From a virus: a DNA stretch of 64,000 bases. The translations under genes and the position numbers were made by a program. A model generated the notes under the pieces. It made no database searches. It saw nothing but the letters and a program-made list of their open reading frames with translations, and was not told where the DNA came from. This document shows, piece by piece, positions 47,873 to 63,431 of this stretch (its first letter is position 1; the number at the start of each line of letters is the position of its first letter). The stretch lies in the IMG/VR virus record IMGVR_UViG_3300028840_006907, positions 64,001 through 128,000 of that record, one strand, 5' to 3'.

Positions 47873-48282
47873 TGGAGGTGAGGAGAGTTGAACTCCTGTC
47901 CGCGAAGGTATCTTGAGTAAACCTCTACATGTTTAGTCTATGGTTTAAATCTTATTCATAATCACGTTCACAGACAAACTTAATTAAGAACCAGTCTCTA
48001 GTCTCATTCATTGGTCAAGACTCCTCAATGAACCAGAACCCGTTTGGCTATCCGGAATTAACAGGGTTCAGTTAAAACCGGATTTGTCGTTTTTTGTTTA
48101 AACGACGGCTTCTTCTGCTTGATGAATAGCAGCAAGGTTAAGTGCTGAAAACATCGCACAGAAGTTAACTGTATTAGTTTTTTCAGTTATTATTGAAATC
48201 GGCTTTTTTACGAGGCCAACCGATTAACCTCGACATGCAGTTTACATTTCAACTCATCACGTCGAAAACCAAGTACACCCCC
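47873..48282 (-). ncRNA. ssrA: tmRNA (SsrA)
   Basis: Minus strand starts GGGGGUGUACUUGGUUUUCGACG, has GCAUGUCGAGG...GGUUGGCCUCGUAAAAAAGCCG, ends GGACAGGAGUUCAACUCUCCUCACCUCCA; 620-bp ORF-free gap. Confidence 0.65.
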
Positions 48283-58829: not shown

Positions 58830-58993
58830 TGGGACTTATAGGAAAACCTAATAAAGAATATAAAATCCGATTAAAATATTGGACCAAAGGCATGGAAATA
58901 CAATGCCCTAGTTGTAAAACAATGGTTAAAGAACCCTATAAATGTCCTAAATGTTTTTCTATTCTTAAACCATATGTTAAGGGGAAAAGATGA
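58829..58993 (+). CDS. micro zinc-ribbon protein (54 aa)
   Basis: Hand-translated MGLIGKPNKEY...CPSCK...CPKC; start and stop overlap neighbours. Confidence 0.35.
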   Translation: MGLIGKPNKEYKIRLKYWTKGMEIQCPSCKTMVKEPYKCPKCFSILKPYVKGKR

Positions 58994-59796
58994 TAAAGTT
59001 AATTTATGCTACTGACCTTCATGGGGATCCTCGTAAGTATCGAGCTGTTCTGGAATTCGCTCTGAAACATGATATAAAGTTAATTCATCTCGGTGCTGAT
59101 ATATTACCGAAAGGTACCAATCTGTTAAAGATACAGAAAAGGTTCGTTAAGAATTACTTAAAAGATTTTCATACTGAGTGCGACTCTTATGGTATCAAAA
59201 TTTTAAGTTTCTTTGGCAATGACGATATCTATACTCGTAAGAAGTATTTTCGGGAATATGGTGAATTGCTCGATGAGAATCCATGTACAATAGAAGGCTA
59301 TGAATTTAAAGCTTACCCCTATGTCTTGGATTATCCCTTTGGTATAAAATCCGCTTGTAAACTGGATTATCCTGGGTGGAAATGTCCCGATCTTTATTTA
59401 ACCAATCCATGTGAGTTTAATGAAAAAGGTTATTATCTCATTGAAGATATAAATGATTACTTTCTGCAGAAGGGTACTGTGGAAGATGATCTTAAAGAGA
59501 TCCATGCCGATGATAAAACTATCATGGCGATGCATATGCCTCCGCAGGGACTCGGTATGGATGTCTGTTACGGGAACAGGCGTGTAGGTTCCAAGTCAGT
59601 CCTGGACTGGATCTATCGGGAACAACCCTTGTTATTTCTGTCAGGTCATATTCATGAAAGTCCTGAGATAACGGGTATTTGGAAGACTATGGTAGGTGAC
59701 ACAGTGGTTATTCAGCCCGGACAAAAAACCGATAAAACCACAATGGTTTATATCGAAATAGATGGTAATAAAGTTGATGCTCAATTAATAGGATAA
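58990..59796 (+). CDS. calcineurin-like metallophosphoesterase
   Basis: DLHGD, GNDD and GHIHE motifs. Confidence 0.65.
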   Translation: MIKLIYATDLHGDPRKYRAVLEFALKHDIKLIHLGADILPKGTNLLKIQKRFVKNYLKDFHTECDSYGIKILSFFGNDDIYTRKKYFREYGELLDENPCTIEGYEFKAYPYVLDYPFGIKSACKLDYPGWKCPDLYLTNPCEFNEKGYYLIEDINDYFLQKGTVEDDLKEIHADDKTIMAMHMPPQGLGMDVCYGNRRVGSKSVLDWIYREQPLLFLSGHIHESPEITGIWKTMVGDTVVIQPGQKTDKTTMVYIEIDGNKVDAQLIG

Positions 59797-60767: not shown

Positions 60768-60843
60768 GGCTGTCTGACCGATGTGGTAAAGGTGCTGGAC
60801 TGAAAATCCAGAAATTCCGGTTCAATTCCGGAGGCAGCCACCA
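60768..60843 (+). tRNA. tRNA-Phe (anticodon GAA), CCA encoded
   Basis: Stem CTGGA/TCCAG, loop CTGAAAA, T-arm TCCGG TTCAATT CCGGA. Confidence 0.65.
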
Positions 60844-60870
60844 TTAGTAAATTAGTGTTTTTTAATAAAA

Positions 60871-60946
60871 GGGCGTATCGGCAAGCGGTTAAGCCACTAC
60901 TCTGATAAGGTAGCATGCGAAAGTTCAAATCTTTCTACGCCCACCA
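60871..60946 (+). tRNA. tRNA-Ile (anticodon GAT), CCA encoded
   Basis: GGGCGTA/TACGCCC acceptor, loop CTGATAA. Confidence 0.65.
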
Positions 60947-60965
60947 TAAATCTTAGGAGGACAAG

Positions 60966-61732
60966 GTGTTCTGGGTTTTACAAAACAATCTTTTTAATGA
61001 AGTAGGGTTTCAGTCTTTGGTAGGAACTCTGGAAAGGATGAATATAAAACATATCATTGTGAAAGTGGTTCCTTTTGTAGGAGATATAATTCCTGACATA
61101 AACCCGAAGAACCCTGTCATAGCAGTGGGAGCCTATTCCATGTGGAAGGTTGCCAAAAGAAAAGATGGCACCCAGGTGTCTTTGTGAATGAGAATTTTAC
61201 GTATCCGAAATTGATAAAACATTATGGAGACAATCTCTTAAATAAAGAATGCAATATAACTACACTTGAGAATGTTCTCCCGAAATATAACGAATTTTTT
61301 ATAAAACCTTGTAAGGATAGTAAAGTTTTCTCAGGACAAAGGATGACCTGGGTAGAATTTAAAGAGTGGAGAGAAAGAATCTTAGAACTCGGATGGGAGG
61401 GTTCAGTAAAGGGAAGTACCTGTGTAGTACAGGCACCTGTAAAAGAAATCTACCGGGAGTACCGGTTCTTTATAGTGAATGGTAAAGTTGTCACAGGTTC
61501 GCAATACAGAGTAGGAATGCGGGTATTTTCAACGGAATGTCATGAAAAGGATGTAATTGAATATGCTCAACGAATGGTTGATCTCTGGAGTCCGGATGTA
61601 GGTTTTGTCATTGACATAGCACTAACTCCTGAAGGATTCAAAGTTATCGAGATAAACTGTTTAAATGCTTCAGGCTTTTATGCCTGTGATATGAGTAAAG
61701 TAGTTTTTGCATTGGAGAAAATTTATAATTAA
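60966..61732 (+). pseudogene. ATP-grasp-like gene split by a frameshift (or programmed frameshift)
   Basis: ORFs 60966-61187 and 61142-61732 overlap in different frames across the A-run AAAAGAAAAG. Confidence 0.4.
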
Positions 61733-61733
61733 C

Positions 61734-61819
61734 GCAGACGTGCTGGAATGGTAGACAGGCTTGGCTAAGGACCAAGTGTTCGTATGGGCGTGAGAGTTCG
61801 AGTCTCTCCGTCTGCACCA
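61734..61819 (+). tRNA. class II tRNA, anticodon reads AAG (Leu), CCA encoded
   Basis: GCAGACG/CGTCTGC acceptor, stem CTTGG/CCAAG with loop CTAAGGA, long variable arm. Confidence 0.5.
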
Positions 61820-61833
61820 TATAGGAAGTAAAG

Positions 61834-61998
61834 ATGGGCGAATGTAATTGCTGTTATATGACAATGGGAGAACATGCTTTGACTTGCCCTGCGTATAAAA
61901 GGGATAAAAGTCAGCCCTGTGATTGTTGCTATATGACAACAGGAGAACATGCTCTTACTTGCCCACAGTATGAAATTGAAGATAATGAGGAGGATTAA
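61834..61998 (+). CDS. Cys-rich peptide with internal tandem duplication (54 aa)
   Basis: AGGAAG RBS; CNCCYMTMGEHALTCPAY and CDCCYMTTGEHALTCPQY. Confidence 0.45.
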   Translation: MGECNCCYMTMGEHALTCPAYKRDKSQPCDCCYMTTGEHALTCPQYEIEDNEED

Positions 61999-62077
61999 GA
62001 TGGGACTGAACTCATCGTTGTTTAAACGTAAGTGGTTTGTAGATTAAGACCTGAGCCTGAGTGCTACAGGTCTGTAC

Positions 62078-62150
62078 GGGCTTGTGGCCAAGTTGGTAAG
62101 GCTCTTGACTTTTAATCAAGAAATCGTCAGTTCGATCCTGACCAGGCCCA
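62078..62150 (+). tRNA. tRNA-Lys (anticodon TTT)
   Basis: Stem CTTGA/TCAAG, loop CTTTTAA, T-arm GTCAG TTCGATC CTGAC. Confidence 0.65.
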
Positions 62151-62159
62151 TATGTAAAC

Positions 62160-62236
62160 GCTCCCGTAACTCAGTTGGTCAGAGTAGCTGATTCTTAATC
62201 AGCGAGTCGAGTGTTCAAATCACTCCGGGAGTACCA
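62160..62236 (+). tRNA. tRNA-Lys (anticodon CTT), CCA encoded
   Basis: Stem GCTGA/TCAGC, loop TTCTTAA. Confidence 0.6.
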
Positions 62237-62255
62237 TAAGTAAAGTAAATAATTC

Positions 62256-62344
62256 GGAAGGGAGCCAGATATTGGTTAGCTGGGGCTGTCTGCTAAACAG
62301 TTGTTCTATAAGGACTTAGGGTTCAATTCCCTATCCTTCCGCCA
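62256..62344 (+). tRNA. tRNA-Ser (anticodon GCT), CCA encoded
   Basis: Loop CTGCTAA, long variable arm, T-arm TAGGG TTCAATT CCCTA. Confidence 0.6.
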
Positions 62345-62360
62345 TAAAAAGAAGATTAGC

Positions 62361-62603
62361 ATGAAAGATGAAGATGAACTTAAATGGTGTGATGACGATT
62401 GCAAAAATTGTGATGACGATTCAATAATTAAAGAAATACATGCTATTCGGAAGGAACATGCTAAAAGGTTTAATTATGATATAAAAGCTATGGGAGACGA
62501 TCACAAATTAAAACATCCAATCATTGTAGAGATGATGACTGCAAGTAGAAAAGGAGATCATGAAACTGTTAGAAAATTAAGACAAAAGTTGAATTCTATG
62601 TGA
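62361..62603 (+). CDS. hypothetical Cys/Asp-rich protein
   Basis: ORF-track start 62301 overlaps tRNA-Ser; trimmed to ATG at 62361. Confidence 0.4.
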   Translation: MKDEDELKWCDDDCKNCDDDSIIKEIHAIRKEHAKRFNYDIKAMGDDHKLKHPIIVEMMTASRKGDHETVRKLRQKLNSM

Positions 62604-62767
62604 ATGAAAAGATTTTAAAAATGAATATGAAAAAGAAAGAACAGAAAAAGGCAATAAAATGGGGCAGAAGAAAGATATACATAGGAAGAAAAAGATTAAT
62701 GCCCGTAAACGAAAACCGTGTAATCGGGATTGCGAAAACTATAAAAAATTCAAGTGTTAATATATAG

Positions 62768-62845
62768 GGCCGAGTGGTGAAGTTGTTTTAACACGGTAGT
62801 CTGCAAAACTATTATGCGTCGGTTAGAATCCGACCTCGGCCTCCA
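62768..62845 (+). tRNA. tRNA-Cys (anticodon GCA), CCA encoded
   Basis: GGCCGAG/CTCGGCC acceptor, loop CTGCAAA, T-loop TTAGAAT. Confidence 0.55.
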
Positions 62846-62861
62846 GTTCTTTGAAATAAAT

Positions 62862-63061
62862 AAGTATATCGAGTCCACGCGCAGATGTTAAGTCTGTGAG
62901 GAAGCTCAGGACATCACCGCTGACGGAAGGAGACGTAAGTCGTAGGTACTTCCTAGGATGCAACACAAACAGACCTATGCCGGTGAGCGGGGCTATGATG
63001 GTCGGGTTAGTGGCAAAGATAAATGTGGACATAAAACAGAATCCTGGCTACGGATATACTT
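62862..63061 (+). ncRNA. candidate structured RNA with RNase P-like P1/P4 motifs (about 200 nt)
   Basis: No ORF, locally GC-richer; GAGGAAGCUCAGG and ACAGAAUCCUGGCU can pair with a bulged U; terminal helix AAGTATATC/GATATACTT. Confidence 0.3.
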
Positions 63062-63068
63062 ATTATAC

Positions 63069-63175
63069 GGAGAGGTAGGTTTAATTGGTAAAATCAGTGC
63101 TTTGCACAGCACCTAAGCTAGCAAGGTGCCATTCCAGGGATGGATTTCGGGGTTCAAGTCCCCGTCTCTCTGCCA
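63069..63175 (+). other. oversized tRNA-like element (107 nt) with canonical T-arm and CCA end
   Basis: GGAGAGG/TCTCTCT acceptor, D-loop with GG, GCA-anticodon-like loop, 34-nt extra region, T-arm CGGGG TTCAAGT CCCCG. Confidence 0.35.
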
Positions 63176-63186
63176 ATAAATTATAC

Positions 63187-63275
63187 GGAGGTAGACCGGC
63201 TGGACGAGGAGCCTGTCTTGAAAACAGGTAGGGCTGTAAAAGGTCTTCGGGGTTCAAGTCCTCGTGCCTCCGCCA
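63187..63275 (+). tRNA. tRNA-Ser (anticodon TGA), CCA encoded
   Basis: Stem CCTGT/ACAGG, loop CTTGAAA, long variable arm. Confidence 0.6.
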
Positions 63276-63352
63276 TAAAAACAATAGTTATCAAAAGGTA
63301 ACTATAAGTTCTTTGACATTTCGGTTATTATGAAGTAAGCACATATTTATAT

Positions 63353-63431
63353 GGTGAGCGTAGCTTAACTTGGTTAGAGCACTGGATTGTGGTTCCAGGA
63401 GTTGGGGATTCGAGTTCCCTCGCTCACCCCA
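63353..63431 (+). tRNA. tRNA-His (anticodon GTG) with encoded G-1, CCA encoded
   Basis: Extra 5' G opposite discriminator C, stem CTGGA/TCCAG, loop TTGTGGT. Confidence 0.7.

Follow-up and report, generated by a model that had tools for sequence, protein, structure and literature searches.

A huge-phage ATP-grasp ligase gene divided by a one-base deletion and probably decoded by −1 ribosomal slippage

Tetramers of the form Z_ZZN, A_AA.A among them, are documented motifs of −1 frameshifting and are used by insertion sequence (IS) elements, as with the A_AAG and A_AAA signals of IS1- and IS3-family transposases (Sharma et al. 2014, PMC4066793). Here we describe a gene in a 64,000-nucleotide (nt) stretch of viral DNA (positions 64,001 to 128,000 of IMG/VR record IMGVR_UViG_3300028840_006907; the window), in which the coding sequence of a predicted ATP-grasp ligase of a huge phage is divided between two open reading frames, ORF1 and ORF2. 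As in the transposase systems (PMC4066793), the two ORFs overlap, the second being read in the −1 frame, the tetramer could be re-paired by a single Lys tRNA, and the non-shifted product ends soon after the site; a hairpin at 8-nt spacing is also shared, although here only at a second site (site 2) that belongs to a sister clade. Unlike those systems, the gene concerned encodes a ligase and not a transposase, the shift is not fixed in the family, since many relatives are in frame, it occurs at two positions, each with A_AAA_GA, and no stimulator was recognised at the site in the window (site 1).

'Corrective' or compensatory frameshifting is likewise a recognised class, with the G-run of herpesvirus thymidine kinase and mitochondrial cases as examples (Atkins et al. 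2016, PMC5009743). The present locus resembles this class in that an indel in the DNA would be compensated in decoding, in that the truncated product is without an obvious role, and in that, among close relatives, in-frame alleles alternate with shifted ones. It differs in that the shifted state is old (synonymous divergence, dS, near saturation), is the majority state of the close relatives, and has a conserved slip site. With the conserved slip site and the apparent hairpin at site 2, the case comes closer to a programmed signal than to an accident that is being rescued.

A third comparison is with the tail assembly chaperone genes of phages (lambda G/GT type) and with dnaX, in which a conserved −1 shift also takes place on A/G-rich Lys codons. 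The dnaX signal, which PMC5009743 discusses, consists of an upstream Shine-Dalgarno (SD)-like element and a downstream hairpin. In these genes the motifs are heptamers (G_GGA_AAG, A_AAA_AAG), both products are needed in a set ratio and the position is fixed in the family. By contrast, the motif described here is a tetramer that sits at a different place in each of two clades, and the short products of non-shifting ribosomes differ accordingly (73 amino acids (aa) at site 1 versus 169 aa at site 2), an argument against any role of the short product. The event that we propose is of a known kind, −1 frameshifting at a Lys tetramer; what is unusual is that two independent A_AAA_GA sites alternate with in-frame alleles within one phage gene family. 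Literature searches, those that combined ATP-grasp with programmed frameshifting in phages included, turned up no description of a frameshifted ATP-grasp or R2K gene.

A one-base deletion at a lysine tetramer

ORF1 (60966–61187, plus strand) starts with GTG, encodes 73 aa and ends at the 0-frame TGA at 61185–61187, while ORF2 (61142–61732, plus strand; 196 aa) lies in the −1 frame relative to it. This bears out an earlier note on this DNA, which had reported two ORFs overlapping in different frames. The two open frames overlap by 91 nt, since the −1 frame opens at 61097, or by 46 nt when counting begins at the first ORF2 start codon. An SD sequence, AGGAGG, can be read at 60955–60960 (plus strand), 5 nt 5′ of the GTG start; in the relative L062, AAAGGAGG precedes its ATG. 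When the frames are joined, the product is 255 aa long, close to what the earlier note had proposed, and matches PHROG 7313 in one stretch (residues 2–254 against positions 4–261 of a 264-position profile, E=2e-61). It also exceeds the Pfam cutoffs for R2K_3 (PF14243; 72.7 bits versus 26.3) and R2K_2 (PF18299; 51.8 bits versus 26.2), with matches that cover residues 95–247. Comparison with orthologs, which had been suggested as a check, yielded unbroken 255-aa homologs at 71–80% identity that span the shift site.

Exactly one base is absent between the codons for Trp60 and Trp68 in the window, where 20 nt are found as opposed to 21 in the intact relatives L005, L006, L007 and L001. The sequence AAAAGAAAAG stands here, at 61155–61164, within the overlap of the two ORFs; in the 0 frame, site 1 reads GCC AAA AGA AAA GAT GGC, and in the −1 frame ...AAG AAA AGA TGG CAC. 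In the 0 frame, residues Y57, S58, W60, K61 and A63 do not vary, nor do W68, P70 and G71 in the −1 frame. The invariance of A63 and W68, each in its own frame, confines the change of frame to GCC AAA AGA AAA GA TGG (~14 nt), and A_AAA_G is the one Z_ZZN motif that lies between the Ala63 codon, read in the 0 frame, and the Trp68 codon, read in the −1 frame. The first A-run is excluded as the shift point, which is the second, A_AAA_G at 61160–61164. The earlier placement of the frameshift at an A-rich run around 61155–61170 was thus right as to the region, and can be refined to its second A-run, with one base missing.

The nucleotides of the slip site are conserved beyond the needs of coding: they do not change among shifted lineages whose nucleotide identity is 73–81%, and they differ among the in-frame relatives, which have AAGAAAAAATGG, AGAAAGAGGTGG or AGGAAAGGATGG at this position. 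In four shifted lineages (73–79% identical), AAGAAAAGATGG, of 12 nt, is the longest invariant nucleotide run in the gene. AGA AAA GAT GG is present in all lineages shifted at site 1, and all nine of the nine clusters of 73-aa ORF1 proteins finish with A[KR]RKDG[TS]Q[VAE]SL.

Selection was assessed by the Nei-Gojobori method, with the parts on each side of the site scored in their own frame (omega, the ratio of nonsynonymous to synonymous change) and with the other frames as controls. Between shifted lineages, whose dS is at least about 1 or saturated, omega is 0.05–0.14 upstream as well as downstream of the site; overall it is 0.13–0.29 for the 0-frame part and 0.05–0.14 for the −1-frame part. 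For the closest pair, the window and L059, both of which are shifted, the ORF2 part in the −1 frame has 18 synonymous differences against 6 that are nonsynonymous (omega 0.075), and read in the other frames it gives omega > 1.6. At Gly71, the −1-frame codon varies synonymously (GGT/GGC/GGA), while the same site in the 0-frame tail varies as V/A/E. Purifying selection is therefore acting on the 0 frame upstream of the site and on the −1 frame downstream of it.

Taken together, these data make it very probable that the gene still works despite the frameshift, and −1 slippage of ribosomes at A_AAA_G is the likely way in which it is decoded. As we propose it, an ancestral 1-nt deletion would have moved the last 189 codons into the −1 frame, and a fraction of ribosomes would slip back one base at A_AAA_G. 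Within the putative slip site A_AAA_GAT (61160–61166, plus strand), the tRNA-Lys on the AAA of codon 66 (61161–61163) would re-pair with the overlapping AAA one base upstream (61160–61162); AGA (61163–61165) would then be read as Arg67, followed by TGG (Trp68) and the remainder of ORF2, to give the full-length 255-aa ligase. Ribosomes that do not slip would stop 24 nt later and release the 73-aa fragment. On this model the 0-frame part would supply codons 1–66, a pre-ATP-grasp N-terminal domain (60966–61163, plus strand) with Lys66 as its last codon, and the −1-frame part would supply the ATP-grasp catalytic module, from Arg67-Trp68 to Asn255 and the TAA stop (61163–61732, plus strand). We infer from the sequence comparisons that recovery is ribosomal and not transcriptional, that the slipping tRNA is that for Lys, and that the efficiency is enough for function. 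The product of a Lys slip, ...AKRK-RWHPG..., has the sequence of the intact homolog P0003 at site 1. The Arg that slippage would introduce falls where intact homologs have K/R/G (site 1) or E/K/H (site 2), and in a structural model with a predicted local distance difference test (pLDDT) score of 92.9 the positions of both sites are loops or a helix end.

Other routes between the frames were considered and rejected. Tandem slippage at a heptamer finds no X_XXY_YYZ motif, and a P-site AGA or GTA would be unable to re-pair; L003, with CGA in place of the first AAA (61155), speaks against a +5 hop from there to 61160; and a slip at T_TTG beside the 0-frame stop would replace the conserved R-W-x-P-G-x-F. 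Elsewhere in the 64-kb window, three further −1 ORF pairs with A_AAA_G (at 56.7, 45.0 and 41.9 kb) proved to be ordinary ATGA gene junctions.

The protein itself, encoded by a huge phage of ~470 kb, is by its sequence and modelled fold a predicted ligase of the R2K clade. K120, E165, R167, D217, E229 and N231 are invariant in 66 sequences; they make up the conserved Lys, Glu-x-Arg, Asp and Glu-x-Asn, and by what is generally known of the ATP-grasp fold they may be assigned catalytic roles. An AlphaFold (AF2) model of the intact homolog P0001 (80% identical; pLDDT as given above) shows an ATP-grasp fold, and Foldseek placed the ATP-grasp peptide ligases LysX/ArgX and RimK as its nearest solved folds, with E down to 2e-12. 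The Pfam family names we take to correspond to the R2K names of Burroughs et al. The members of this family have been predicted to be peptide or protein ligases, those of phages attaching peptides to proteins during conflicts between phage and host (Burroughs, Zhang and Aravind 2015, PMC4431377). The present gene agrees with that clade in its Pfam scores above threshold, its ATP-grasp fold and the presence of the family in caudate phages, and differs in its frameshift, which has been described for no R2K member. R2K.3 is described there as having ExGD, where this gene has ExN (E229-x-N231), and in the nomenclature of PMC4431377 the predicted protein fits the phage-associated R2K.2 (DUF4343) group.

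Shifted and in-frame alleles among relatives

The identical 1-nt deletion is present in the window locus (L004) and in L059/L060, L002, L003/L016, L015 and L062. L059/L060 are 94.7% identical to the window at the nucleotide level and have a different gene neighbourhood, and L015 is a GenBank metagenome contig. When ORF1 alone served as the query, nine protein clusters were obtained, 70–100% identical and each of exactly 73 aa. When close relatives (≥65% identity) were clustered at 90% identity, 5 clusters were in frame, 9 were shifted at site 1 and 3 at site 2, so that 12 of 17 are shifted; the ~30 loci of distant homologs (<52% identity) are all single-frame. For the window lineage, no intact relative closer than 78% nucleotide identity was found.

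Some apparent variants did not stand. P0122 and P0123 (182 aa) are the site 1 frameshift again with another start call; in L059/L060, one gene caller took the GTG of the GTGA overlap as the start of a 182-aa ORF2. P0110 and P0112 (start 'MNENF') were rejected as distant site 1 cases, P0112 being merely cut by a contig end.

In a neighbour-joining (NJ) tree, clade A holds the shifted window, L002, L003 and L015 together with the intact L005 (four of five lineages shifted), and L005 is nested within it, paired with the shifted L015 at 100% bootstrap. Such a position favours an ancestral, persisting shift, and the simplest history is an old deletion with one reversion, subject to the low support of clade A itself (53% bootstrap). 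At the site 1 position, the in-frame L005 (~998–1012) and L007 (~876–890) carry AAAAAGAAAAAATGG (A5-G-A6). Indels, and slippage of ribosome or polymerase, are to be expected at runs of this type, which may be a route by which in-frame and shifted alleles toggle.

A different 1-nt deletion, ~290 nt further downstream, was found in L009, L010, L011 and L022-25 of the sister clade (clade B, 100% bootstrap), and in the protein clusters P0013, P0015 and P0018 (10 sequences in all). It is independent of the deletion at site 1. Here GTA AAA GAA ATC has become GTA AAA GA-ATC, which again creates A_AAA_GA in the 0 frame, and A_AAA_G is at this site, too, the sole Z_ZZN motif in the permitted stretch. 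About 520 distinct single-base deletions are possible per gene, and only 1–3 of them create A_AAA_GA in a compensable position. Site 2 splits the catalytic core immediately 5′ of the codons for the invariant E165-x-R167, yet selection persists on the part downstream of it (omega 0.07–0.14).

At site 2, GAGTACCGGT can pair with ACCGGTTCTC in a stem of 8–9 out of 10 base pairs (~−10.7 kcal/mol) that begins 8 nt past the 0-frame GAA codon. The stem is formable in all lineages shifted at site 2 and in none of eight in-frame lineages, where 3–7 of the 10 positions pair. L010, whose closest relative overall is the in-frame L001 (99.7% bootstrap), resembles L001 in its loop as well, yet it possesses both stem-forming arms. 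The hairpin has apparently co-evolved with the frameshift, and together with the invariant slip site it would suggest evolution toward a programmed signal.

Slippage and its alternatives

Several observations weigh against slippage at site 1, or against its long persistence by descent. In Escherichia coli, A_AA.A is the weakest of six active tetramers, and these six give 0.26–5.6% frameshifting with a strong pseudoknot and near background without one (PMC4066793). Folding of 60 and 100 nt after site 1 in 4 shifted and 8 in-frame lineages found no conserved hairpin or pseudoknot (z-scores −0.8 to +1.2), and a small GGCAC/GTGTC hairpin there is not kept in L003 and L015. Upstream, the SD-like GGAAGG at 61144–61149 (plus strand), 11 nt 5′ of the slip codon, might act as a stimulator, and its counterparts are GGAAGG in L002, GGAGGG in L015 and GGAAGA in L003; this element is weak and not confined to shifted lineages, as the intact L006 also has GGAAGG. 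An Rfam scan of the gene gave no match. The ORF1 part has a higher omega, 0.29, in the closest comparison (window versus L059). Clade A has a bootstrap of only 53%, mosaicism is evident in L010, and the sharing of sites could be due in part to recombination rather than descent. Of the explanations listed in the earlier note, programmed frameshifting is nevertheless the one that the sequence evidence supports best, provided that it is taken as programmed or compensatory; the downstream stimulatory structure that the note had proposed to look for was not found at site 1 and was found only at site 2 of the sister clade.

The shift may either be tolerated (compensatory) or be used to hold the ligase low (regulatory). 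A bolder version of the slippage model, which we regard as possible but doubtful, would see A_AAA_GA as an efficient host- or phage-specific −1 signal that a group of huge phages recruited independently at two positions of one gene, with a shift that perhaps depends on the phage tRNA-Lys genes 350 nt downstream. It would then work as a regulatory dial, heritable and reversible by indels, that holds a potentially toxic, protein-modifying ATP-grasp ligase at a low level sensitive to the tRNA pool, and the frameshift would evolve by toggling between in-frame and shifted alleles as a regulatory device rather than a tolerated accident.

Among the alternatives to slippage, a split enzyme survives best, although we consider it unlikely. 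In this case the 73-aa N-terminal domain and a separately started C-terminal ATP-grasp module would assemble non-covalently, with ORF2 starting at GTG 61142 or by termination-reinitiation at GTGA 61184–61187, where the 0-frame TGA (61185–61187, plus strand), which ends the 73-aa product, overlaps a −1-frame GTG (61184–61186). Site 1 does coincide, in the structural model, with the boundary of the N-terminal pre-ATP-grasp domain, at the end of helix 57–65. All shifted lineages have a −1-frame GTG or ATG at the codons for Met/Leu59-Trp60, but such a GTG follows from the coding of xTG-TGG and occurs in intact relatives as well. The window has GGGAG 10 nt 5′ of GTG 61142; this is missing in L059, L002, L003 and L015, even though the genes of these phages use a strong AGGAGG. 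The GTGA stop-start overlap is present in the window and L059, and one gene caller starts ORF2 there; in L002, L003, L015 and L062, however, the overlap reads GTAA, which leaves no start codon, and a start at 61184 would lose W68, P70, G71 and F73, all of which are conserved in the −1 frame. A split enzyme also leaves site 2 unexplained, where the core is cut before E165-x-R167 and the sole upstream ATG is 17 codons off and lacks an SD, as well as the occurrence of A_AAA_GA at both sites.

Productive transcriptional slippage needs much longer homopolymers, typically of seven or more (summarised in PMC5009743). We consider it improbable here that RNA polymerase, of host or phage, adds an A at the A4 run and so brings part of the mRNAs into frame, since no shifted lineage has a run of more than 4 nt, and since a translational mechanism accords better with the hairpin of site 2, at a spacing appropriate to a ribosome. 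It is true that both sites consist of A4 followed by GA, that one added A would restore the frame exactly and yield the same protein product as ribosomal slippage, and that DNA alone does not distinguish the two.

Equally improbable, in our view, is a recurrent or persisting pseudogene, in which a hot spot of A-run contraction regenerates dead alleles or recombination keeps them similar. Both deletions do lie in A-rich runs, and the AAAAAGAAAAAA of the intact L005 and L007 should be indel-prone; in-frame and shifted alleles meet in one 90%-identity cluster (P0001 and P0133 versus P0130 and P0131), and relationships are mosaic (L010). Against these stand the absence of any further stop or indel in every shifted locus, with the shifted state found in most close-relative clusters; an omega of 0.05–0.29 between lineages that share a shift, the window and L059 included, which indicates frame-specific selection; the invariant nucleotides of the slip site and the co-occurrence of the hairpin-forming substitutions with site 2; and a window lineage whose intact relatives reach no more than 78% nucleotide identity. 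The recent pseudogene that the earlier note had offered as an option is contradicted by purifying selection on both sides of the site at near-saturated dS.

A sequencing or assembly error in the homopolymer, also raised earlier and favoured only by the A-rich context, can be dismissed, given that the same deletion recurs in at least nine diverged protein clusters, in assemblies made from unrelated samples (MEGAHIT, SPAdes, JGI and Logan) and in lineages only 73–81% identical at the nucleotide level, always with a run of A4.

Gene neighbourhood and significance

One identical gene was found in four assemblies (NCBI, ENA, Logan and JGI) of the 469,617-bp phage contig, and here the window is identical in sequence to the NCBI contig JAEORW010000001.1 (469,617 bp). 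DNA similarity to GenBank phages consisted of tRNA matches only, with no annotated relative. The ligase gene is enclosed by a dense tRNA array (60768–63431, plus strand), the window as a whole having 21 tRNAs and a tmRNA at 47873–48282. On the plus strand, tRNA-Ile(gat) (60871–60946) ends 20 nt 5′ of the start codon of the gene and tRNA-Leu(aag) (61734–61819) begins 2 nt past its stop codon, and release of the ligase mRNA would require tRNA processing. tRNA-Lys(ttt) and tRNA-Lys(ctt) (62078–62236) lie 350–500 nt downstream of the gene, and the slip codon is decoded by these Lys tRNAs of the phage's own.

Downstream, a Cys-rich ORF of 54 aa (61834–61998, plus strand) contains an internal duplication, CxCxYMTxGEHALTCPxY being found twice, and an acidic C-terminal tail, YEIEDNEED. 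The peptide has no sequence match in Pfam or the PDB, and it is kept downstream of the ATP-grasp gene in L059/L060 (96%), L010 (72%) and L001/L012/L013 (73%). The best fold matches of the ligase model are LysX/ArgX complexed with LysW, a small zinc-ribbon carrier with an acidic tail; by this analogy one might speculate that the 54-aa peptide is a substrate or carrier of the ligase.

About 1.2 kb upstream (58990–59796, plus strand) stands a metallophosphoesterase gene of the calcineurin-like type (Pfam Metallophos, E=3.6e-5), with an ORF of 90 aa after it. L009 has a comparable arrangement (754–1647; Metallophos_3, a weak match), which suggests conserved synteny. In L059 (594–1504), the 94.7% identical relative, it is a 229-aa gene with a helix-turn-helix (HTH) domain that precedes the frameshifted gene, with an ATGA overlap. 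This HTH neighbour in place of tRNAs indicates that the gene changes its neighbourhood and yet keeps the frameshift. In L047, matches to the N-terminal (residues 1–59) and C-terminal (176–253) parts of the protein are ~1.2 kb apart and in different frames (66–260 and 1501–1746); either an insertion or a rearrangement may have disrupted this copy.

Gene callers yield pairs of 'hypothetical proteins' of 73 and 196 aa, or of 169 and 69 aa, and most close relatives of this gene are mis-annotated in this way in public databases. If slippage is confirmed, a phage enzyme that is neither structural nor a transposase would join the short list of conserved −1 frameshift genes of bacteria and phages, and A_AAA_GA would be a tetramer context of interest outside E. 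coli. With in-frame, site 1-shifted and site 2-shifted alleles held in one family, these phages offer a natural experiment on tolerated versus programmed frameshifting.

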